NCBI GenBank assembly: GCA_963772365.1
Contig: CAVYXA010000002.1
Coordinates: 32,763-96,762, forward strand
DNA: 64,000 bases
Reading direction: 5' to 3'
From: an uncultured Verrucomicrobiae bacterium
Lineage (GTDB): Bacteria > Verrucomicrobiota > Verrucomicrobiia > Chthoniobacterales > UBA10450
The notes under the pieces were generated by a model. The model ran no database searches. It saw only the letters and a program-made list of their open reading frames with translations, and had not been told where the DNA came from. Below are positions 11,309 through 64,000 of the stretch, in pieces. A program made the position numbers and the translations under genes. Position 1 is the stretch's first letter, and each line of letters begins with the position of its first letter.

Positions 11309-11500
11309 AGGTGGATCGGCTTCTCCGAAGACGATGTTGGGGACGATCGCCTAAGGCGCAAACCAAAGCATTTCCTATCGGAGGAGAAGTTTGGCGCAGG
11401 CGCGCTTTTATTTTGCCAACGCGTTGAGGACAACACGTTCCACCAGATGTTTGACCAAAATGTTTGAGAGAAGGTGGATCGGCTTCTCCGAAGACGATGC
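11309..11500. repeat. REP-like family E (ggtggatcggcttctccgaagacgatg), two copies
   Basis: Direct copies near 11309 and 11473; a third near 44639. Confidence 0.75.
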
Positions 11501-11535
11501 TAAAAACAATAGCCGAAGGCGCAACACTCGAATTT

Positions 11536-12285
11536 ATGAGAAGAGTATTATTAACGCTGTTCGCTTTTGCGGCTTTTGCAGGCACGTGCACCGCGGCAGT
11601 AGCGCAGCCGCTTCAAAATTGTGGCCAGCTTCTGGTCGTTACAACTTCTTCCTGGTCGGCGCCGAGCGGCGCGATGTCGATCTTCGAACGCGATAGCAAC
11701 GGATCGTGGAGACAGCGCGGGTCAAAGTGTGACGTGCGCATTGGCCGGGCGGGTCTCGGTTGGGGACGGGGCATCGTGGAGACCAAATCCCTCAGCGGGC
11801 CGCGCAAACGAGAAGGCGACGACAAAGCGCCAGCGGGAATTTTCCGGCTGGGAAGTGTGTTCGGTTCCAAGCGCGAAACTAAAATGCCATTCATCCGATT
11901 GTCGAAAGACATCGTCTGCGTGGACGATCCGGACTCGCAGTATTACAACCGAATTGTCGATGCGTCGAAGATTCGCCCGCCTTCGCCAAGGCTACGGCGG
12001 GCGAGCCCTCGCGATTGGAGACACGCCGAACAATTATTCGGCGTCGATGTTTACAAATGGGGAGTATTCGTTGAACACAATGTTCCTCCGAAACCTCGGG
12101 CCGGTTCCTGTATTTTCCTCCACGTCTGGAAAACTTCTCGCACTTCCACATCCGGTTGCACAGCGATGTCAGAGCAGAACCTGATCTCAATCATTCACTG
12201 GCTCGATCCAAAGAAGCACCCGCTTCTCGTCCAATTGCCGCGTCCAGTTTACGATGGATCGCGATCAAAATGGAACCTGCCCTGA
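11536..12285 (+). CDS. L,D-transpeptidase (YkuD-like) family exported protein
   Basis: Signal peptide, KREGDDKAPAG, GSCIFLH...TSGC catalytic motif. Confidence 0.85.
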   Translation: MRRVLLTLFAFAAFAGTCTAAVAQPLQNCGQLLVVTTSSWSAPSGAMSIFERDSNGSWRQRGSKCDVRIGRAGLGWGRGIVETKSLSGPRKREGDDKAPAGIFRLGSVFGSKRETKMPFIRLSKDIVCVDDPDSQYYNRIVDASKIRPPSPRLRRASPRDWRHAEQLFGVDVYKWGVFVEHNVPPKPRAGSCIFLHVWKTSRTSTSGCTAMSEQNLISIIHWLDPKKHPLLVQLPRPVYDGSRSKWNLP

Positions 12286-12340: not shown

Positions 12341-12760
12341 CTATCGATCGAATGAATCTGGGAAGATCATCGTCCCGTCTTTGTCGAATCCGAAAGTCAC
12401 TTTAGATGAGCCCTCGTGTCCATCGGAAGCGGCCCCGGCGTAAACGCGACCGGGAATGAGCTTCTGCGGTTGAATCATCGTAGTAAACCCAGGAGGCGTA
12501 ACTCCGTACTCGAGTGGGTGGGTCAGACCACGGCTGCCCACGATGGACCACATCGCCTTCCATCTGTCATCGGCGGTCCGCATAGAAACGGTGAATGACT
12601 TGATATCGGTCTTCGGACGTTTGGTGGAATCACGGTAAAACTCGAACCGGATCGGCCCGCCCAATCGCCCGCTCGCCCTGGAAATAAACGAGTATGACAT
12701 CGCCTCGGCAGCGATGCCCGCGGACAGCAATAACATGATAGCAACGACGCGCCTTTTCAT
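12341..12760 (-). CDS. Integron cassette 5: secreted hypothetical protein
   Basis: ATG directly follows attC R' (GTTAG-ATG); signal peptide; followed by a degenerate R'' box (ATCCAAC, 12320-12326). Confidence 0.75.
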   Translation of the reverse strand: MKRRVVAIMLLLSAGIAAEAMSYSFISRASGRLGGPIRFEFYRDSTKRPKTDIKSFTVSMRTADDRWKAMWSIVGSRGLTHPLEYGVTPPGFTTMIQPQKLIPGRVYAGAASDGHEGSSKVTFGFDKDGTMIFPDSFDR

Positions 12761-12881
12761 CTAACGATAACAAGATAAGCCACCGCTGATGGCAGCAAGC
12801 TGTGCTTGGAATAAGTGTGTGTTGATCATCAAAGGTGAGGCTGTACGCGGTGAAGCGGTTCGCTGCATCGACTGGTTAGAC
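12759..12881 (-). mobile_element. Integron attC site
   Basis: Minus strand GTCTAAC-cagtc-GATGCAGC...GCTTATC-ttgttatc-GTTAGAT; imperfect palindrome. Confidence 0.88.
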
Positions 12882-12884
12882 CCT

Positions 12885-13232
12885 TCAATGGATTTTCTGC
12901 ACATCCTCGATAAACGCATCCAGCCCACCAGATATCAAAAACCAAACATCGATTGTCTTGCCGTTTCGCCGCCGAACCGTGTACACATCGTAACGTTTCT
13001 TGCCTGGAGGAACCGCTAAGGTCTGCATGAGGACTTTCGATCCCGGGTATTTCTGCGCGATCCAAGCATAGGCGTTTTGCTCAACGCCGACAGCAATCAC
13101 CGCCTGCTCTTGGGAACTGCCGTCGCCCCCGTAATAACCTAGCTTTGTGTGGCTGTAATCGGGAGACGTATCACGCGTGGAGCAACCGAAGATGGACCAG
13201 CAGATTATTGATAAGGTGAGTAGTAAGCGCAT
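12885..13232 (-). CDS. Integron cassette 4: putative lipoprotein
   Basis: Lipobox-like IFGC, GGDGSSQEQAVI; bounded by attC sites. Confidence 0.78.
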   Translation of the reverse strand: MRLLLTLSIICWSIFGCSTRDTSPDYSHTKLGYYGGDGSSQEQAVIAVGVEQNAYAWIAQKYPGSKVLMQTLAVPPGKKRYDVYTVRRRNGKTIDVWFLISGGLDAFIEDVQKIH

Positions 13233-13234
13233 AG

Positions 13235-13367
13235 ATCTAACGAGAACAAGATGAGCGACGGCGGACGAGGGCGCGCGTCGCTCGAAGTGGAAGTGTGGAA
13301 GTCATCTCAAAAGCGGAGCGTACAGCCCCGAATGTTTTCGGGGTTCGCTCCATCGCATGGGTTAGGC
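13235..13367 (-). mobile_element. Integron attC site
   Basis: Minus strand GCCTAAC...GATGGAGC...GCTCATC-ttgttctc-GTTAGAT. Confidence 0.88.
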
Positions 13368-13577
13368 CTTTGTCGTGGCAGCAAGCGGGATATGCGAAGT
13401 CGTGAGCTCTCGCAGGTCCAACTTCTGACTGGCGTAATCGATGTCGATCCCGACGAGCGTACCCTCGGCGTCGTAATCCAGCACGACGCCGGGTGCGACC
13501 TCTTCGCTCTCAACACTCGGTCGTGAAGAGAAATCGATGTAGAGCGAGTCGGTGTCCGGAAAGTAATCGAGCTTCAT
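13362..13577 (-). CDS. Integron cassette 3: DUF2283-like putative antitoxin
   Basis: MKLDYFPDTDSLYI, GVVLDYDAEGTLVGIDI; stop codon lies inside attC R''. Confidence 0.85.
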   Translation of the reverse strand: MKLDYFPDTDSLYIDFSSRPSVESEEVAPGVVLDYDAEGTLVGIDIDYASQKLDLRELTTSHIPLAATTKA

Positions 13578-13666
13578 GGGCGAAATCTGCGATCCAAGAA
13601 TGCGTTGTGAACCGTGAGCTTATCAGAGAGCGTGATCACCCGCAAGAAGCGACCGCTCAGCTCCGG
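13574..13666 (-). pseudogene. 3' fragment of the partner toxin (DUF4258/BrnT-like)
   Basis: PELSGRFLRVITLSDKLTVHNAFLDRRFRP*, overlapping the antitoxin ATG; 5' part replaced by IS sequence. Confidence 0.65.
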
Positions 13667-14156
13667 CTTTCGGGGTTCCAACCGCAATATCCACCAGTTA
13701 AAAAACGGCTCGCTATCCTGGCAAAGGGCGCGCCCGCCACCGGCGCACAACGCAAAAAAGCCATCGTCGCTGTGGCCCGGCATTTGGCCGTCGATCTGTG
13801 GCGCGTGCACACCGGACGCTGTACCGCAGCCGGGCTCGGCCTAACTATTTAACGATTGAGTTCGAGGGGAACAGTTTTGGAACGTGGCGCGTGTCCGGGA
13901 TCTAACCTGAACCGTTAAAACGACGAGCTTCGTCGCTTTAGATTGGACCGCGTCAAAGTTCCGCTTCAGTCGAGACGGAATAAGTCACATTGCGCTGTCA
14001 AAATTAACATCGACATGCGCGGATAGGAGTATCAGCCGCTGAACAATCCAAAGCGCGCACCAGAAGCGGAAGCGTTCCTCCCCAAGTTCAACCCCACAAC
14101 CTGACAAACCAATGTAACGTCATCCTCAAAACTTATCTTTGACACCCTTCATAGGG
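13667..14156 (+). mobile_element. IS110/IS1111-family remnant: transposase C-terminus (to 13852) plus ~300-nt right non-coding end
   Basis: FQPQYPP...RKKAIVAVARHLAVDLWR; ends in tttgaca...catagg directly against an attC R'' box. Confidence 0.8.
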
Positions 14157-14163
14157 GTTAGGC
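14157..14163 (-). mobile_element. R'' box of an interrupted attC (cassette 2)
   Basis: GCCTAAC on the minus strand downstream of the 336-aa ORF, followed immediately by the IS end. Confidence 0.65.
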
Positions 14164-14267: not shown

Positions 14268-15278
14268 TTAGTCTCCGCCGTCCATCCGCTCACCCTCCGT
14301 AGTCATTGCCTTAGCTCTCGCGGAATTGCGACCCGTCCTCCGATCAATCTCCAAGAAGGTTTTTCCAATTAGGTCGCTCAAGAGCCGTAGGGCCATCAAT
14401 ATCATGCGGTCGTCGTCGGTGCAGTAAGCCTCAGGCAGTGCATGATTGGCAAGGTTCAGGCTGATTACGCACATGTGCGCTGGGTCGGTGAAAGCGCTGT
14501 TGCTCCGTCCCGTCAGCAGGACGGGCTTGTCCAAAGGTGCTTCAGCCGCACCTAAGCTGGCATTGTAGGGTTTCGCACCAACATGTATGTCATCTGATGC
14601 CCATTTGAAGCGTGGTCGCCAGTGATCGAGACCAGTCGCCTTCTCAAGATCATAAAGATTGATACCTTTCGGCTTGTCGACGGTGGGGTATGCCCACCCG
14701 TAGTCCTCCCTGAATTCAGCGCCAAACTCCTTGATCAACAAAGCCTTCGTGGCCTCCGCTGCCTCTAGACTTCCAGGCTCCAGGGGGGTCATATTCGAGC
14801 GAGGCAGAAACTCAGAATATTGCTTGAGAGCCTTGGCGCTCACGATCCCGCGATGAGCGATGAAGCGTTTTGAAACCTCGCGGTCATACCCGGCTAGGAA
14901 GGTGGATACGACGCCAATCTCATGGAGGGTGCGCCAGCGGCTCAATGCACCATCGGGAAATCCTTCGCGGAGCAGTGCGAGGATTTCATTGGAGACGCGG
15001 ACGGCGCGGGCGTGCAGCGCCACATTAGCCTCAAAAGTGTAATTTTGATCCCGCAGTGCGCGCGGTCGCTCGCGTTGATTGAACGTGGAGCCGTATTCCT
15101 CGCTGATGACGATGAACATCGTGAGAAGGTCTAGCCCTTCCCTCCATCGCGTATAGCAGCGCCGTCGAAAACCTGCGTCGTGTTTCCGGTGATCGGCCAG
15201 CATTTCCGGCAGATGCTCGAACAAGCGGTTGAGGAGCTCAGCGCCCCGCTCGACATCTTGTTTCAGGTCATCGGGCAT
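14268..15278 (-). CDS. Integron cassette 2: DUF5677-like hypothetical protein
   Basis: GFPDGALSRWRTLHE, YGWA, WASDDIH; bounded by attC sequences. Confidence 0.75.
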   Translation of the reverse strand: MPDDLKQDVERGAELLNRLFEHLPEMLADHRKHDAGFRRRCYTRWREGLDLLTMFIVISEEYGSTFNQRERPRALRDQNYTFEANVALHARAVRVSNEILALLREGFPDGALSRWRTLHEIGVVSTFLAGYDREVSKRFIAHRGIVSAKALKQYSEFLPRSNMTPLEPGSLEAAEATKALLIKEFGAEFREDYGWAYPTVDKPKGINLYDLEKATGLDHWRPRFKWASDDIHVGAKPYNASLGAAEAPLDKPVLLTGRSNSAFTDPAHMCVISLNLANHALPEAYCTDDDRMILMALRLLSDLIGKTFLEIDRRTGRNSARAKAMTTEGERMDGGD

Positions 15279-15373: not shown

Positions 15374-15496
15374 GCCTAACGAGAACAAGATGAGCGACCG
15401 CCGCTGGGAGCGAGCAGTGCTCGAAGCAAAACTATTTTAATCATAGGAAATGTGAATGCACGACGGGCGGCGGTTCGCTCCAGCGCCTGGTTAGGC
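15374..15496 (-). mobile_element. Integron attC site
   Basis: Minus strand GCCTAAC-caggc-GCTGGAGC...GCTCATC-ttgttctc-GTTAGGC. Confidence 0.9.
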
Positions 15497-15505
15497 CTGG
15501 CGTGT

Positions 15506-15826
15506 TCATTGATGCGGACCGCCGCGAATGTGAAGACCACAACGTGGACAGACGTAGTTGTAGCCTGTCATCAAAACCATGTAGATCAAGCCAGGGAGCA
15601 AGAACAGAAAGCAGAGGACGATGGCGACAAGGATGCTGCCTCGCGCTTCCTTTTTTGGCGGGCCGATATAGCCGCACTGTGGGTTCGGGCAGATGATGTC
15701 GCCTGGATTGAGCTTTTGTGGCTTTGCAGATGCAGACGTTGCCGCAAGCGGAAAACCACAATGTGGGCAGGATCCGGCTGCAGAAGAGATTTCCCTGCTG
15801 CATTCTTGACATTTGGTCAGCGCCAT
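15506..15826 (-). CDS. Integron cassette 1: zinc-ribbon membrane protein
   Basis: CQEC..CPHCG and CPNPQCG-hydrophobic segment-CPRCG. Confidence 0.8.
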   Translation of the reverse strand: MALTKCQECSREISSAAGSCPHCGFPLAATSASAKPQKLNPGDIICPNPQCGYIGPPKKEARGSILVAIVLCFLFLLPGLIYMVLMTGYNYVCPRCGLHIRGGPHQ

Positions 15827-15847: not shown

Positions 15848-15900
15848 GCCTAACTATAATTAGACCCCATTGTTTGTACGAGGCCAGATATTTCTGTGTG
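15848..15900 (-). mobile_element. Putative attI site
   Basis: Minus strand gtctaattataGTTAGGC heads the array, with no attC palindrome upstream. Confidence 0.55.
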
Positions 15901-15957
15901 CACGGGGAATGTTCGTTTATCGCTGGTGTTCCGGGATTTGTCACGATAAAAGGGCGG

Positions 15958-16161
15958 ATGCCGCGACCCAAACCGCATTATTCTCTGCTCTTGAAAAATC
16001 ATCATACCGGAGAGCAGCTCCGGCTCGATTTGGTGGATCTTCCTTTCGTTACCGCCAAGCAGTTCCGGCTGCGGCTGAATGGTCATTGGGCAAAGAAACT
16101 ACCAGTCGCGAGCAAAACGACTGTGCTCCGTCAATTGCGGACCTGGTGGGTGACACATTAG
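15958..16161 (+). CDS. Small basic hypothetical protein (67 aa), divergent from the cassette array
   Basis: MPRPKPHYSLLLKNHHTGEQLRLDLVDLPF...; occupies the usual intI position. Confidence 0.6.
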   Translation: MPRPKPHYSLLLKNHHTGEQLRLDLVDLPFVTAKQFRLRLNGHWAKKLPVASKTTVLRQLRTWWVTH

Positions 16162-16264: not shown

Positions 16265-17573
16265 GTGGTGAATAGGATCGACATCTATGATGTTGTCATC
16301 ATTGGCGGCGGGCCGGCGGGAAGCACGGCCGCGACTTTGCTCGCCCAGGCTGGCCGCCGCGTGATCCTTCTCGAGCGCGAGAGATTTCCCCGATTTCATA
16401 TCGGCGAATCGCTGCTGCCTTTCAGCATGCAGGCGTTCGATCGCCTGGGCGTCCGGGAAAAGCTGGATCGCGCATTTCTGCCCAAGTATGGCGGGGAAAT
16501 CATGGCTGCGTGCGGGACGAAGAGCATAAAATTCTATTTCAAAGATGGCTTCCGGGCGCGGCGCGATCATGCGTATCAAGTCACGCGCTCGGAGTTCGAT
16601 AAACTGCTATTGGATCACGCCCGTGAGCAGGGAGCTGAGGTTCGCGAGGAGACGGACGTGAAGCGGATCGAATTTGAACCCGGCCGGGTGAAGATCGACA
16701 TCGAAAATTCCGACGGACGAATCGAGACATTGCAGGCCAAATACGTCCTCGATTGCAGCGGTCGCCAGACCGTGCTCGGCAACATGTTCAGGCTGAAAAA
16801 GGCCTACGATCATCTCCAGAAATTTTCCGTCTTTGCGCATTACGAGAATGTCGATCGTGAAGAAGGAATCGACGCCACGCTGATTCGCATTGTGCGGGGG
16901 ATTGATCGCTGGTTCTGGATTATTCCGCTTACCGCCACGCGCGCCAGTATCGGTGTCGTGATGGACACCACGACTTTTCGCGCTACGAAACTTTCGCCCG
17001 AAGCTGCGCTGGAAAAGTGTCTCGACGAGCAACCGATGATGCTCAGATGGATGAAACGGGCCGAGCGCGTCTCGCCGGTTTATTCAGCCGGCGATTATTC
17101 CTATCGCAACACCAGATTTTTCGGGGACCGCTGGCTGCTGGCCGGCGATGCCGCCGGCTTTATCGATCCTGTGTTCAGCAGCGGTGTGTTCCTCGCAATC
17201 ACTTCTGCAGAACGGGCCGCTGATACGCTGGATCAAGTTTTACGAAATGAATCTCGCCGCCAGCGTCTGTTTCGGAGAGTACTCGCGCTCCTTGAATCGG
17301 CTGATGGATGTTTATCTCAAGTTCGTGAATTCTTGGTATCTCAACGGAAAAGAATTTATCGAAATATTTCTGAACCCCACCGAGCGGATGCAGATTGCAT
17401 CGGCGGTCAATGCCGTCCTGGCGGGCAACGAAGGCAGGAGCTTTCACATCCGATGGCGGATGTGGCTGTTCTATTTCTTTGTGAAGATGCAGCGATTTTT
17501 CCCGTTGTGTCCGCGGCTCTCGCTCGTGCCGAAAAAGGGAGACGTGGTCCCGGCCGAAGCTGCGATTTCCTAA
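16265..17573 (+). CDS. Flavin-dependent halogenase-like oxidoreductase (apparent frameshift near 17275)
   Basis: GGGPAG, FPRFHIGES, WFWIIP (WxWxIP), GDAAGFIDPVFSSG. Confidence 0.85.
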
Positions 17574-22360: not shown

Positions 22361-22703
22361 TCATCGTCCTTCAATGTGAAACCGATGCAATAGCCGATGT
22401 GCGAACGGCGCGACAATGAGGGATGCGATCCCGATGAAAGCCAGCCCGGAAAACAGCGCGTAGCAAGAAGCAAAAATTTTCGCCGCGGCCGAATGCAGAG
22501 GATCGACAGGTCCCATCCCGCCCAGAATCATTGAGGCATTGAGAAGTGCATCGACCCATCCTCAGCTTGCCGAGAAAATGATAACCGAGCACGCCAATGC
22601 CCAGGGCGAACGCCACCAAAGTCAGCGCCACTGCCAGGTGCCGCGCCACGCGCCTGGCAAACTTCGCCCGGCTCAACAACGGATGATTGCGCCGCTCATA
22701 CAT
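22361..22703 (-). CDS. Small membrane protein, ion-channel-like (apparent frameshift near 22560)
   Basis: Joined frames give VLGYH...WVDALLNASMILGGMGPVD...YALFSG...HRLLHRFH. Confidence 0.7.
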
Positions 22704-22710
22704 TTAGGGA

Positions 22711-22914
22711 CTAAATTTTAAAGCGGAGTGCAGCGCCCGCTTCAAAGTCCTCGTCGGCCTGTTTGGCAAGATGATCAAGCTTACCCGCAGCGACGTCAGC
22801 TTCGAATTTGCGATCCCAGGCCTCGGCGACAAACTCCTCAAACCATTTTGTAAAAGCCGCAAGTTGATCGCTGGGCAAGCGTTCAACCGCGGATTCAATC
22901 TCCCGGACGCTCAT
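22711..22914 (-). CDS. Small putative antitoxin-like protein
   Basis: MSVREIESAVERL...WDRKFEADVAAGKLD pattern; no toxin follows. Confidence 0.6.
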   Translation of the reverse strand: MSVREIESAVERLPSDQLAAFTKWFEEFVAEAWDRKFEADVAAGKLDHLAKQADEDFEAGAALRFKI

Positions 22915-22952
22915 GCCTTAATTCTGTATCACCACTTGCTTCAGCGCAAAAG

Positions 22953-22990
22953 CAAAACAGCCGACCCCTTTTCGAGCTCGGCTGTGTGTT
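22953..22990 (-). terminator. Rho-independent terminator downstream of the duplicated groEL 3' end
   Basis: acagccga...tcggctgt hairpin with a T tract on the minus strand. Confidence 0.6.
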
Positions 22991-23781
22991 AACTCGCGAA
23001 AGCTTTCGGAGTTAATCGTTGTTTCGATTTCGGCTTAATAATCCATGCCGCCCATGGCGGCCCAATCTCCCAGCCTAAATCCAAGAAAAACGACCGACTC
23101 CTTTCTGCCTTTCTTCGCTGTCAAGATTTGATGCCTGACCCCAATCTCCCAATCAGATTTGATGCCTGACCCCAATCTCCCATCCTGGTAAGTGACGAAT
23201 AATTTCGAACTAACGTCTCAGGCAAACTGGGAGTAACAGGGGCGCGGTTAAACTGAAAATGCTACCGGGGAAATCTCCACCGCGGCGAGCACGAGCAGGC
23301 GTGTTTCATAGGCTCGACTTTTGAGCGGCTCCGCAAATGTTAAGTGTTTAGATCTGACTCCGCTCTGGATTTCCGAGTGACGCCATAAGTTCGGCGCGCT
23401 CGGCTTCAGTCAAAGCATCCAGACCACATCGTCGCGCAAGCTATCGCGATTCCAATGCCTCCCGTTCCGCCGGCGGGAGCGCTTCCATCGCTCGTTCGAT
23501 TTGGTCAACGCTCATGTTCTCGATCCTGATTCGATGCCGCGACTTCGGCAATCAGGAATCCGCGCGGGAGCTGCGATCGGTTTCCTTGACCGTGCAAATG
23601 TTGAATTGCCTGCTCGCGAATGCTTCGGAGTTTAGACCCGACCCCGTTTTCCCCGTTCCGACTACGGCGGCCCAACGTCCCAGCCTAAATACAAGAAAAA
23701 AGCACCGACCCTTTCTTCCCTCTTTTCCCCTGCTTTCCCCATCAGTCATTTTTTTCTTGCAGCGGCCTGCTTGGCGCGCGC

Positions 23782-24240
23782 ATGATGCGCCTTTCCTCCG
23801 CAAATATGGCCAGACTCGTCGAACGCCGACAGAAACCCGCATCCGACGCGGCTGATTTGTCGGCACGCAAACAGAACGGTTTAAACGAGTGGGGAGAGCG
23901 GGTCGCCAAGTACATCCCTGCGGAAATTCTCACATTCTACACCGCCGCCGTAAGTCTAATTGCTGCATACGACCTCACAGCCCAAGCGACGAAACGATTG
24001 TGGTTATTCGCCGTAGCTGGTTTGGTCTTTTGGCTGCTGACCCCATTTTGGCTCGGCCGATTCTCAAAAGATAAAAGCGTGAAGATAACGAACCAAATTG
24101 TTGGATTCATCGCATTCGGATTATGGGCATATGCTTTTCCGGCTGGGTGGTTTAAAGACATGGGATTATATGACCCGATTCTCGCAGGTGTTCTTTTAAT
24201 CCTGTTCGCGGGTGTCAGCGGATTCATTACGCCTAAGTAA
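23782..24240 (+). CDS. Multi-pass membrane protein (about 4 TM)
   Basis: ERVAKYIPAEILTFY followed by hydrophobic helices; basic N-terminal extension. Confidence 0.75.
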   Translation: MMRLSSANMARLVERRQKPASDAADLSARKQNGLNEWGERVAKYIPAEILTFYTAAVSLIAAYDLTAQATKRLWLFAVAGLVFWLLTPFWLGRFSKDKSVKITNQIVGFIAFGLWAYAFPAGWFKDMGLYDPILAGVLLILFAGVSGFITPK

Positions 24241-24249
24241 GGCAAGGGC

Positions 24250-25434
24250 ATGCGAGCGCTCTTCAGCTTCAGCGAGCGCGGGGAAGTTCGTGACTTAGTC
24301 GGAAGTGCGACTGAGTTTCGATCCGTACAGGGTATTGTTGTAGACTATGATCCCTTTTGGCTAACACTGTGGTCGCTCCGTAGCAAATACGGAGATTCAG
24401 CCGTCGACGAACTCAGCCGGCGATTGTTCGATTGGTTGCATTTCTTTGGGCCAGGTAATTGGCCAATGTTTATTCCGTCCTTTGTTCAAGGTCTCGAAGA
24501 AATTGGAGAGGTCGAACCGCCGGATCCAAAGTGGATACCGAAGCACTGGTTTGAACTCCAACATCTCCTTCGAGTCGGCGCACCGTCGAAAGAGCCATTC
24601 ATCGTAAAGATTTGCCTGCTACCGTGGCAGCCGGAAGAGCGCTTACCCCAGCTGGGAGAGTATCCGTTTCCAGTTCTGAAAGAGCGTCGAGGGATTGCTG
24701 AGCTAGCTTTTCCGATGCGAGCCCACCGGCCCGTGATTGGCGGAATTAGCATCGGCACAAACTCCACCGATTCAGGAACGCTCGGCGGTATCGTTGAAGA
24801 TCAGAACAAGAAACGATGGGGCGTGACATGTGCACACGTCGTCGGTGGTACATGCTCTGTTGAGCAGCCAGCTCAGAGCGATAACGGCAGAGCCGCATCA
24901 ACCGTCGGCAAAGCGCAACTAATTAGCCGCCTCAACGCTTCGACTCGCAGTACGCCTTGCAATCCGTACAACAAGGGAGCGGTATTAAATTCTGTTGATG
25001 CCGCCTTAATCGAATTTGATCAGGGCACAACTACCTCGCTTCAGATCTTAAATCAACCCAAGCTCGTGGGCGTAAGGTCGCGCCAAGATATCAATCCTGG
25101 TGATTTAGTGGATGTCGCGGGAAAGCAATCCGGTTCGCGATTGCTGCAAGTGGGGGGACTGGGCGTTACGTACAGGATGCGAGATTCTGCGAATAATTTT
25201 TTCTGTTTTCACCACTTGTTTGAACTCAAGTGGCCACGCTGGTGGCGGGTTATCGCGAGTCGACCGGTACAAAAAGGTGATTCGGGCGCCTGGGTAATCA
25301 CGTCCGGCGTAAATGGAAGCGAGTGGGCCGGAATAGCAATCGCGGGAGATCGTTTGATTGGCTATGCAACATTTGCAGAAGAAGTGATCGATTGGGCGCG
25401 AGCCGATCACAAACTCGATTTGGTCATTGTCTGA
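24250..25434 (+). CDS. Trypsin-like (S1) serine protease with N-terminal extension
   Basis: GTLG, TCAHV (His), DAALI (Asp), GDSGA (Ser); no signal peptide. Confidence 0.85.
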   Translation: MRALFSFSERGEVRDLVGSATEFRSVQGIVVDYDPFWLTLWSLRSKYGDSAVDELSRRLFDWLHFFGPGNWPMFIPSFVQGLEEIGEVEPPDPKWIPKHWFELQHLLRVGAPSKEPFIVKICLLPWQPEERLPQLGEYPFPVLKERRGIAELAFPMRAHRPVIGGISIGTNSTDSGTLGGIVEDQNKKRWGVTCAHVVGGTCSVEQPAQSDNGRAASTVGKAQLISRLNASTRSTPCNPYNKGAVLNSVDAALIEFDQGTTTSLQILNQPKLVGVRSRQDINPGDLVDVAGKQSGSRLLQVGGLGVTYRMRDSANNFFCFHHLFELKWPRWWRVIASRPVQKGDSGAWVITSGVNGSEWAGIAIAGDRLIGYATFAEEVIDWARADHKLDLVIV

Positions 25435-25568
25435 GCCGTACAGCAAAAACAGCTCAGCTCTCGCCAGATCGACTGCTTGTTAATTGTTATTCGGCTTTGG
25501 ATAAGGATGTCCAAAATCTATGCCGTTCACTCCGCGATCCGCATTAGACAGTGATAACTTGATAAGGA

Positions 25569-26139
25569 CTACCCAGTTTGTCGAATCCAATCGCGAATAT
25601 TCATCCCGATTCTCTCAACGTCTTCCTTGGCCAACACGCCGCCATGCATCACGATGTTGCGCGATTTTTCGAGAGTATTGAGTACCGGCTTTTGACCATT
25701 CCAAATCGGCAAGAACGCTCTCGAATACCGCCCAATTCGTGACAATGATCGACGAGAGATCGCCGAAGTCGCAATAATTAATCTCAGATTGCCCACGGCT
25801 ACCATGCCACCGGAATTTTGCTTCTTCTTCCATTCGCGTTGCCGCTTTCTTCTGGATCTTATCAGGAACTTTAGTCCACCACGTTTCCGTATGTTCCTCT
25901 GCCATTGCTTTGCTCACCAAGGTGCGCACCATATTCTCAAACGAATGAATCGCTGTGTAGACGATTGACATTCGCTGGGCATCCACGAGCGCGTCCGGGT
26001 GAAGCATTTCAAACGAAAGCGATCGACGCAAAATTCCCGCCTCCTCGCTTCCGAAGTGTTTCCGCCGTTGTCGCCCAATTCGATCGAGAGTTTCGTCCGT
26101 TAAAACTCCGCGGTAGATAAAAGAATAGAGATCGACCAT
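25569..26139 (-). CDS. Swt1-like HEPN domain protein (apparent frameshift near 25688)
   Basis: FENMVR, WW, YCDFGDL; second frame supplies the RNIVMH (Rx4H) motif. Confidence 0.8.
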
Positions 26140-26774
26140 TAGCCTAAATGTTGTCTCAGGCTCCTGAAAATTGCGTCGTAGACGCCTTGATCTCTGCTCT
26201 CAGGCAAAACGATGTTCACATGGTACTGCAAAGAACCTACCGATACCTTGCCAAGGGGTTGATTGAGCTCCGGCTTATCACTGGCTGATTCGGTAAATTG
26301 TTCGATCTTACTTTCCGCTGCCGATTCAGCTGTTGCAGGAACCGTCGCGCCTTCGAAGTCGGCTTGCTGACATAACGCAACAAATGTTCGCGCGATCAAC
26401 GAGATCACGCTGTCCTTCTTCTTGCCCGCATATAGAGTCCTCAATTTATTCCTAACCTCGGTCGGGCTGAGTTTGTGCGCCTGCCGATTAACCGTGAACA
26501 AGTCAGAAAACGCTTCTTTGATTGCTTCCGCCAGGACTTGCTCAGACCGAGAAGTATCAAGGAATTCGTAATACCTTTTCTGAGGAACGCCATCCGCGTC
26601 GATGAATTTCAGATCCTTGAGAACGCCGATCAAAAGTCGGTCGTTTGTCGAAGTGAATCCCAGTCCCTCAAGGAATTTATAAGAGAACCGAGGAGGAGCA
26701 TCAGCGTTTTGAATGGCGGCGAAATATGCCGGGATAGCACCCGGCTTTAGTGTGTAGCTGTCAGGTAGGCTCAT
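26139..26774 (-). CDS. DUF5343-like protein
   Basis: APPRFSYKFLEGLGFTSTNDR...LKFID; C-terminal LQYHVNIVLPESRDQGVYDAIFRSL; stop overlaps the HEPN start. Confidence 0.75.
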   Translation of the reverse strand: MSLPDSYTLKPGAIPAYFAAIQNADAPPRFSYKFLEGLGFTSTNDRLLIGVLKDLKFIDADGVPQKRYYEFLDTSRSEQVLAEAIKEAFSDLFTVNRQAHKLSPTEVRNKLRTLYAGKKKDSVISLIARTFVALCQQADFEGATVPATAESAAESKIEQFTESASDKPELNQPLGKVSVGSLQYHVNIVLPESRDQGVYDAIFRSLRQHLG

Positions 26775-26837: not shown

Positions 26838-28476
<1,639 letters not shown>

Positions 28477-61741: not shown

Positions 61742-61825
61742 TGCCGGCGGAGGGGATCGAACCCACACGATCTTGCGATCACTGGATTTTGAGTCCAGCG
61801 CGTCTGCCAGTTCCGCCACGCCGGC
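61742..61825 (-). tRNA. tRNA-Leu(CAA)
   Basis: GCCGGCG acceptor stem, TGGCAGACGC D arm, CTCAAAA anticodon loop, long variable arm, GGTTCGATCCC; CCA not encoded. Confidence 0.95.
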
Positions 61826-61929
61826 TCTTAACTCAGAACAAACGACTTACAATTAATTACTCGCCGGGTTGAAAATCTCACGTTGACGGCATGTTGACTT
61901 TATCAGCCGATTATGCGACGATTTGCGGC

Positions 61930-63081
61930 ATGAAACGACCATCGCTCACAATCCGTCCTTATCGGCATAGTCAAACACATCGGTACTGTCTCGATCTTCG
62001 CGCATTCGGCAAGGGGCGCAAGTTTTTCAAGACGCGCGCGGAAGCTGATGCTGAGCGGTTGCGGCAACTCACGACCCTGGAACGCCACGGTCGCGATGCG
62101 CTGGATTTGCCTAACCATATCCTCTCTGAGTTCATCAAAGCGAGAAAAAAGCTGACGGATACGGGAATGAAATAAAAGACGCCGTGGAATTTTACGTTGA
62201 CCATTTGGAGCGCGTCCGCCGATGCGGGACAACTGTTGCGCAGTTGGCGGGTGAAGTCGTAACGGCGAAGGAACAGGATGGGCGCTCGCGCGATTACATC
62301 TGCGATTTGCGGTTGCGCCTAAACCGTTTCTGTCAGGATTTCGGCGATCAACCCATTGCGGCAATCGGTGTGAGAGAATTAGATAATTGGTTGCGCGCAT
62401 TGCCTGGTTCTCCGAAAAGCCGCGCGAACTATCGCGCCAATGTTGGTGTGCTGTTCAGCTACGCCACAGAGCGGGAGATTCTGGATAAGAATCCGGTCTT
62501 ACGCACTGCGAAGCCGAAGCTTCTCGATAAACCGCCGGAAATCTTCCGCGTCGATGAACTCGCAGCGCTGTTGGATGCCGCGAGTCGCGTGGAGCCTGAT
62601 GCGTTGCCGATGCTGGCCATTGGTGCATTTGCGGGGTTGCGCGAGGCGGAGATTCAACGCCTCGATTGGAGCGAAGTCGATCTCAGGCGCGGACACATCG
62701 AAGTGAAAGCAGCAAAGGCCAAAAGCGCCAAGCGCCGAATCGTTCCGATACAGCCGAATCTCACCGCATGGCTTCGCCCTTACGCTAGCAGGACCGGGCG
62801 CATGGTTCCGGCAGGCGCGCGCAGCAAGCTTGATCGTGTGCGCAAAAGCTGCCGGTCTCGCGCGCTGGCCGACGAATGGGTTGCGTCATTCGTTCGCGTC
62901 TTATCGACTCGCAGCAATCCACGATGCGCCCCGTGTCGCCTCCGAGCTTGGCCATACCAGCCCGCAGATGCTTTACACCACGTATCGCGAGATTGTGTTG
63001 CCCGACGAAGCGGAGCGGTATTGGAAGATTAGTCCGGCAACAGAAGCGAACGTTGTACGCCTCGATTTGGCGATTCGATGA
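61930..63081 (+). CDS. Tyrosine recombinase / phage integrase (apparent frameshifts near 62170 and 62848)
   Basis: AGLREAEI (R), LRHSFASY (HxxR-like), LGHTS, Y; N-terminal arm-binding-like region. Confidence 0.9.
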
Positions 63082-63596
63082 ACTGGTCAGCGTTCCATTT
63101 TTTTAGACAGCCGGGCGGCATCTCCAAGAACGACCAACTCGAAATGCTCGTTTGCTTGGACTACGAGCGAGCGTTAGAAAGCAAAAAGATAGCCGAATTT
63201 GTAGGACAATTACAAAATGCCGAACGCAAGGAGTTAGTCGCGGAAGCAGACCTCTTCCACTCAAAATTCGTGCGAACTGAGTGGGACATCCAGGAATTGA
63301 TTCCCGCTGCTTGTGTTGCAGCTTCATGGTTTCCGAAGCACTGGCTTGAGGGTTCACCAGTCGAACGGCGAAAGATCGTAAAGCAGTTGGCGACGGTTTA
63401 CGCGGAACGCACCTTGCCAATCTGGGATTTCCCGTTCCAAGACAAAGAGGAACTTGAACTGCTGCTGTCTCTACAAAGACCGCACGAAACTTTGCACGTC
63501 GTTGCAATCGATCTGACGCAAGCAAAATCGGCGCTAAAGCGCAAATTCGAGAGGTGGATTGCGCGCGGAACGACATCACGGGAACACGTTCTCTAA
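63078..63596 (+). CDS. Hypothetical protein of the integrated element (may extend further)
   Basis: ORF overlapping the integrase stop. Confidence 0.55.
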   Translation: MNWSAFHFFRQPGGISKNDQLEMLVCLDYERALESKKIAEFVGQLQNAERKELVAEADLFHSKFVRTEWDIQELIPAACVAASWFPKHWLEGSPVERRKIVKQLATVYAERTLPIWDFPFQDKEELELLLSLQRPHETLHVVAIDLTQAKSALKRKFERWIARGTTSREHVL

Positions 63597-63839
63597 AAGG
63601 CAAAATCAAGGTTCCCTCCATGCTCTACGATCTAGCTTGCTATCGCTTGGCAAAGGTGGAGGGGGGGAACGTGAGCTGCTGATGACCAAGGCTTCCGGCG
63701 AAATTCGTCGCAGATTTCACGCGGCAAGACTAGGGCCAAACGAGTTCTAAAGGCTTTGAAATACATCTGAGCATTTGCCGGAAAGAGTTTCTTTCTTCCC
63801 GGCAAGCGCAAACTCGGCTGTTCGCGCATCAGTGCGGTC

Positions 63840-64000
63840 ATGAACAGTAATTGCATTGAAAAACAACCATCTAACTCCCGTGAAATCCTAACAAAAAAAC
63901 AATGTTGCGAGCTGCTCGCTTGTTCGCCGCGTTATCTGGAGCGCGTCTTGGACGAACGGGCGGCTCCGCGCATTCAAGCCGACAGGCAAGCTGTGGCGTG
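63840..64000 (+). CDS. Excisionase-like HTH protein (truncated by the window end)
   Basis: EILTKKQCCELLACSPRYLE...LRAFK..GKLWR. Confidence 0.6.
   Translation, partial: MNSNCIEKQPSNSREILTKKQCCELLACSPRYLERVLDERAAPRIQADRQAVA

Follow-up and report, generated by a model that had tools for sequence, protein, structure and literature searches.

A conserved integron platform variant in Verrucomicrobiota with a candidate new component encoded beside attI

The locus and its cassette array

The window, that is, the whole stretch of 64,000 nucleotides that was analyzed, comes from an uncultured bacterium whose named relatives belong to the Chthoniobacterales (phylum Verrucomicrobiota). It contains a cassette array, an attI core and a short open reading frame (ORF) of 67 codons, which runs from an ATG to a TAG codon (Table 1). 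The product of this ORF is strongly basic, with a pI of 11.4, 12 lysine or arginine residues against 3 aspartate or glutamate residues, and a net charge of about +10. Distances to the ATG are about 93 bp for the L end of attI and about 105 bp for the crossover. An earlier note on this DNA had described a divergent, basic ORF about 100 bp from an attI-like site, followed directly by backbone genes. The coordinates and the core are confirmed, and the backbone resumes directly past the ORF with an FAD oxidoreductase gene from about 16265. Because the core pattern occurs seven times in the 3.3-Mb genome, with five occurrences at attI positions (two beside intI and three at platforms of the window type), the attI-like core beside the ORF exceeds chance.

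Table 1. Features of the platform and its array, with positions in the window
Feature	Position	Strand	Remark
67-residue basic protein, unnamed attI-tied family	15958-16161	+	predicted three beta strands and C-terminal helix
RBS-like purine run ahead of the ORF	15949-15957	+	SD-like run
Possible cassette promoter, GTGACA-17-GATAAA	15916-15944	-	read by eye; weak
Two TGCAC-type repeats, 24-bp period	15874-15880 and 15898-15904		about the place of the direct repeats in intI-linked attI
attI core: L box GTCTAAT (15865-15859), 4-nt spacer TATA, R box GTTAGGC (15854-15848)	15848-15865	-	
attI crossover, G/TT	between 15854 and 15853	-	
Cassette gene 1, zinc-ribbon membrane protein	15506-15826	-	zinc-ribbon matches below Pfam cut-off
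attC of cassette 1	15374-15496	-	R'' matches TTAGGC after the attI crossover
Cassette gene 2, DUF5677 protein	14268-15278	-	
R'' half of second attC (14163-14157), then IS110-family remnant	13574-14163		transposase C-terminal piece on +
DUF2283 gene	13362-13577	-	preceded by 3' stump of partner gene
attC	13235-13367	-	
Cassette gene, lipoprotein-like, without family	12885-13232	-	
attC	12759-12881	-	
Last cassette gene, then decayed attC start	12341-12760	-	

The array leaves attI on the minus strand, comprises five cassette genes and ends at ykuD (11464-12285). Its attC sites belong to a homogeneous family that is common to the platform array and to intI-linked arrays. Three of them are whole (15496-15374, 13367-13235 and 12881-12759), and one more is cut by the IS110-like remnant, whose family match is weak (E 0.015) and which truncates the next cassette too. 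The remnant starts directly after the attC R'' box, in which it presumably resembles the attC-targeting IS1111 group, and its transposase stop overlaps a sequence resembling an attI R end. The DUF2283 gene is presumably antitoxin-like. In the relative G016, ykuD abuts the FAD oxidoreductase gene with no array between them, an order found in one of the five ortholog loci compared. Consequently, the 4-kb block of array and platform is an insertion.

An SD-like run at most 17 nt from the ATG is present in 42 of 50 dereplicated loci. A consensus scan for the cassette promoter Pc gave none, and the best hexamer pairs on the array strand fell at one common offset in 12 of 50 sites, which is a weak positional signal.

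Other parts of the window are of separate interest. Frameshifts at 17271-17275 (FAD oxidoreductase) and 27709-27833 (groEL) are probably assembly errors. A lower-GC segment at 22361-26774 carries a small gene, presumably DUF2281-like, a serine-protease-like gene that has a small membrane partner, and two paired genes that presumably resemble a Swt1/HEPN defence module. At 61742-64000, a tRNA gene precedes a tyrosine recombinase gene (62184-63032) and small genes; an integrated element probably has its edge here.

Use of the attI site with no intI in cis

The core has the same geometry as the intI-linked attI sites of the genome and its relatives, with an exact match at one of them (L144). An attC pattern built from the clade was applied to 92 loci and gave 109 matches on the side and strand of the array (155 kb), none on the opposite strand and one on the far side (187 kb). 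Where the array side spans 1 kb or more, attC was present in 45 of 49 loci. If cassettes enter by attI x attC recombination, the bases after the crossover should pair with the R'' box of the first cassette's own attC. They match in 32 of 39 cases, compared with 9.4 in shuffles, and 0 of 10,000 shuffles reach the observed value. In addition, the first cassettes are unrelated in 73 of 83 platform pairs (not mutually independent) that are at least 90% identical, including fully identical platforms. The core geometry, the attC asymmetry and the cassette turnover thus show, at the level of comparative sequence, that the site is an attI with an array, in agreement with the status that the earlier note had assigned to it.

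Searches for intI in the flanks of 102 loci with the ORF and of 8 distant loci, many of them on short contigs, found none. IntI is encoded elsewhere in 19 of 23 carrier genomes, in 17 of them above the family cut-off, and lies 260 kb to 1.8 Mb from the platform in the four carriers with long contigs. In the source genome (G000), one intact intI (C1:1249522), which has an attI and array of its own, is on a different contig, and a broken intI lies at a distance of 34 kb from the window platform. The simplest reading, already proposed in the earlier note, is that an IntI from elsewhere in the chromosome serves the site in trans, which is very probable. By the same comparative evidence, the locus is a non-autonomous (satellite) integron platform.

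The source genome contains two further platforms, 3.5 kb apart. One (G000:C3:766309-765994) combines a frameshifted ORF with three attC sites; the other (G000:C3:769842-769748) ends just before the ORF and is 88% identical to the window copy. A lone attC with a gene (G000:C1:823108) is distant from any intI or platform found. In another genome, three tandem platforms (G542:C2:1000-15000), each with its own cassettes, share a roughly 300-bp tail that includes a REP-like hairpin; the array also contains an IS110 gene. The IntI proteins of families f19 and f45 (L135-L140, L146 and L147) are encoded by open frames 420-500 aa long, and their long N-terminal extension bears no relation to the 67-residue ORF.

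Satellite attI sites are not confined to loci with the ORF. In a set of 61 relatives, IntI was found in 35 and the ORF in 4. The core pattern occurs in 162 of the 251 genomes of the taxonomic family, with 461 matches, some of them chance ones inside genes. Among 50 core sites inspected, an ORF match was present at one and a truncated start at another, and many of the sites were bare attI modules with cassettes, without intI or ORF. These modules (for example in G016, L195-L203; G609, L184 and L204-L208; and G487) are about 35-55 bp long and number up to about ten per genome. Each is made up of the core with one or two repeats of the IntI type, of which the outer duplicates the R box; similarity extends barely beyond this outer repeat. 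Satellite attI sites without the ORF are commoner than those with it. Integrase-less attI is therefore a general trait of the taxonomic family, and the ORF marks one subclass.

The platform resembles a sedentary chromosomal integron in its attI L and R boxes, its attC family and the entry of cassettes at G/TT. It differs in that no intI is present in cis and the 67-residue gene holds its place, that other repeats lie behind the core, and that a genome may have several platforms. The locus also agrees with the definition of a CALIN in the accessible text of Cury et al. (2016, PMC4889954), as it contains two or more attC sites, no nearby intI (the nearest remnant being the broken copy mentioned above) and IntI elsewhere. 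That text treats CALINs as reservoirs or as leftovers of intI loss, rearrangement or insertion at secondary sites, in which attI could not be searched for; by this description the window locus differs by its intact attI with turnover and its conserved, dedicated gene. CALIN cassettes are described as mobilized in trans in the accessible part of 10.1101/2025.06.18.660453. Insertions at attG and the resulting SALINs, as presented in the accessible part of 10.1101/2022.09.11.507474, likewise place cassettes outside the main integron through IntI in trans; however, attG is a loose GWT target, whereas the target described here is an attI that is conserved, has both boxes and has been used again many times.

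The protein family and its linkage to attI

A word search found 56 homologues of the 67-residue protein, with 60-90% identity and mostly 67-68 residues long. When 1.84 billion representatives were searched with a profile, 158 matched; among the 150 listed, nearly all are short, and the two long ones are repeat artefacts. The median dN/dS is 0.198, based on the 595 of 2,145 pairs with usable dS among 66 unique intact coding sequences. Judged by this conservation, the ORF is a real gene of a conserved family under selection, as the earlier note had required of a new component.

The note had also reported that tyrosine recombinase motifs were absent from the protein. This holds at the level of families, since no Pfam or NCBIfam recombinase domain matches it. 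The possibility that the ORF is an IntI fragment was rejected, with an hhalign probability of 0.1 for its profile against IntI. Among the 150 listed matches, one sequence carries IntI: in P0194, from one ENA contig, the N-terminal half of IntI continues in frame into the final 29 residues of a family member. This fusion suggests that intI and the family gene may once have been neighbours.

Family searches gave no functional annotation for the protein. Structure prediction, a check proposed in the earlier note, gave an AlphaFold2 model of three strands and a C-terminal helix (pLDDT 85.8); comparison with the structure libraries gave no significant match in any of them. No winged-helix or helix-turn-helix family is listed among the matches.

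The association with integrons was scored over the 102 loci with the ORF (16 from genomes, the best 80 of 150 metagenome matches, 4 from relatives and 2 from the source genome). In 83 of them (84 by script, minus L024), the opposite strand carries an attI core 104-114 bp upstream of the ATG, and the association expected in the earlier note is thus found. In nine others the ORF is inverted, so that attI lies after its stop codon. Four further contigs are too short, and in five loci the ORF is partial, attI is displaced or an attC half is present. The inverted copies form at least two separate clades and so represent at least two events. They have far-side neighbours in common with uninverted relatives; therefore, the inversions occurred in place. 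In each, about 50 bp behind the core stayed with attI, and the repeats did not move with the upstream region of the ORF. One inverted clade has GTTAGG just ahead of the ORF, resembling an attI-type cassette. In the uninverted loci the spacing is held to about 5 bp although the intervening DNA diverges, and among the loci with enough flank none had the gene without an integron site. Distant members occur in other families of Verrucomicrobiota, in 9 of 401 genomes and in 11 of 301 genomes of another set; as read by eye, they have an AAC-type core upstream and divergent genes, at about 30-45% identity. A functional tie of the protein to attI, in the sense of an attI-related task, is thus probable.

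At the same time, the gene is patchily distributed and often broken. It is present in 45 of the 251 genomes of the taxonomic family, with up to four or more copies. The far-side neighbourhoods number 42 among 78 loci, and 23 loci (including L028, L036, L047, L066 and L081) have the platform at one common chromosomal place, behind a convergent gene with a presumably glutamine synthetase-like C-terminus. Another group of platforms sits behind a jag-like gene. In the intactness test, 22 of the 102 copies failed, and about 18 are visibly broken; some of the breaks may be long-read errors, since the window also has frameshifts in groEL and the oxidoreductase gene. Because satellites without the ORF are commoner and about 18 of the 102 copies are broken, the protein is an optional add-on and not a general or required part of integrons. 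Of the accessory component proposed in the earlier note, conservation and the tight tie to attI therefore stand, but generality and necessity do not.

Unpublished genomes contribute to these counts: G452 provides one of the 102 ORF loci and one of 13 intI-linked sites, G597 one of 49 sites without the ORF, and five others enter the tallies. All claims hold without them.

Possible roles of the protein

At sites linked to intI, a pair of direct repeats is spaced with a 24-bp period, and the outer repeat duplicates the R box. Sites linked to the ORF instead have TGCAC-type repeats near +25 and +49, and often at +37, in a similar place and with a similar period. The TGCAC-type repeats, a motif defined on ORF-linked sites and of common descent with the gene, are present at 51 of 56 ORF-linked, none of 13 intI-linked and 2 of 49 ORF-less sites. 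The IntI-type outer repeat (DR2) is found at 4, 9 and 33 of these sites, respectively. A search for the core together with the motif gave 16 sites in 14 of the 251 genomes, with an ORF match behind 11, nothing behind 2 and, by eye, a decayed ORF start at 3. As read by eye, four genomes outside the taxonomic family also have GTGCAC repeats behind the core, at six loci in all, and another clade of the protein has different repeats.

The best reading of these patterns, with a probability of about 0.45 and hence somewhat short of even odds, is that the protein binds the TGCAC-type repeats and replaces the accessory binding of IntI. The two repeats in the window would then be candidate binding sites. 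In the proposed mechanism, the protein would be a small sequence-specific DNA-binding protein that binds the repeats lying some 25 and 49 bp away from the R end, acts as an accessory, architectural element in place of the IntI-type direct repeats and thereby tunes or licenses attI x attC insertion at the satellite site.

Small basic proteins beside an att site with phased repeats are familiar from Xis and from integrase arm-binding domains. The 67-residue protein shares with Xis its small size, its basic character and its place beside an att site, and the beta-beta-beta-alpha order of the model presumably recalls arm-binding domains of the lambda Int and Tn916 type. However, neither sequence nor fold gives a match to Xis or to the arm-binding domains of phage and transposon integrases. 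Within integrons, the closest parallels come from attI1 and from Vibrio cholerae. The accessible text of the review by Vit et al. (2022, PMC8946536) states that V. cholerae attIA x attC recombination requires an unidentified accessory factor, and proposes that the direct repeats of attI1 may have replaced host factors; an accessory attI function of this kind is what is proposed for the 67-residue protein. DR1 and DR2, however, are bound by IntI1 itself according to the accessible part of PMC12901181, which also describes attI-type cassettes, whereas the family reported here is known from Verrucomicrobiota genomes. In the accessible text of PMC11551772, Xis is mentioned solely as a tool.

For a second class of integron platform in Verrucomicrobiota the case is more tentative still. 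In such a class, a small DNA-binding protein of a new family, possibly with a new fold, would stand in for intI, and the protein's own binding sites would stand in for the IntI-bound repeats. One integrase would serve several attI sites, and the class would be switched or tuned by its own factor. Integrons are described as requiring intI, attI and two promoters, with help from host factors only. In the full-text literature covered, which included few subscription journals, no description of an integron-encoded accessory recombination protein or of such a platform was found. The protein could thus be the first of its kind, and the locus is a real, conserved integron platform variant with a candidate new component. 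One genome offers a natural pair: one attI has IntI-type repeats but lacks a helper gene, and the other has different repeats and a gene dedicated to it. With a single integrase, the two sites and one 67-residue protein, the idea that repeats may have taken the place of accessory factors becomes open to a direct test. Moreover, some arrays scored as CALIN leftovers in an abundant soil group own an attI and still turn over.

A transcription regulator that leaves recombination untouched, with the repeats as its operator between the cassette promoter and the first cassette or with control of its own divergent promoter, is unlikely. Such a function would suit a small basic protein divergent from the array, with a possible promoter between the ORF and attI and repeats downstream of it, and palindromic repeats are typical operators. 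Nevertheless, the inversions keep the repeats with attI while the upstream region of the ORF and the promoter region are lost or moved, the repeats retain the period of the IntI-type repeats, and the promoter itself is poorly supported.

The replacement of IntI binding also has to be weighed against two improbable alternatives. The protein might promote the IntI-driven spread of attI together with the ORF and become dispensable after installation. The patchy, multi-copy distribution, the three tandem platforms of G542, the many far-side neighbourhoods, the empty site in G016 and the frequent decay of the ORF agree with this, as does the GTTAGG before the ORF of an inverted clade, given the attI-type cassettes of PMC12901181 (accessible part). 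Against it, the platforms showed neither a conserved far end nor a terminal repeat or target duplication, ORF-less attI sites are dispersed too, and the 23 loci in one neighbourhood indicate a platform that is sedentary there; attI1 also inserts poorly into genomes, according to the accessible text of Loot et al. (10.1101/2022.09.11.507474). Alternatively, the protein might contact IntI or single-stranded attC as an activator, inhibitor or chaperone, with the TGCAC-type repeats as diverged IntI sites. The identical spacing of the two kinds of repeats and the P0194 fusion would fit such contacts, but a factor acting in trans needs no adjacency to attI through inversions, and P0194 is a single sequence on a single contig.

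Least probable is a passenger gene with an unrelated task beside which an ancestral attI landed, the pair having been copied since: many ORF-less attI sites work alone, broken copies are common and the protein has no functional annotation, yet the gene was not seen apart from integron sites (an attI, though displaced, or an attC half is present even in the five irregular loci), its spacing is held while the DNA between diverges, and the link survives inversions and extends to other families.

A small element, presumably GIY-YIG-like by its translation, is inserted in the ORF or just behind it at L022, L023, L024, L096 and L110 and in G561.
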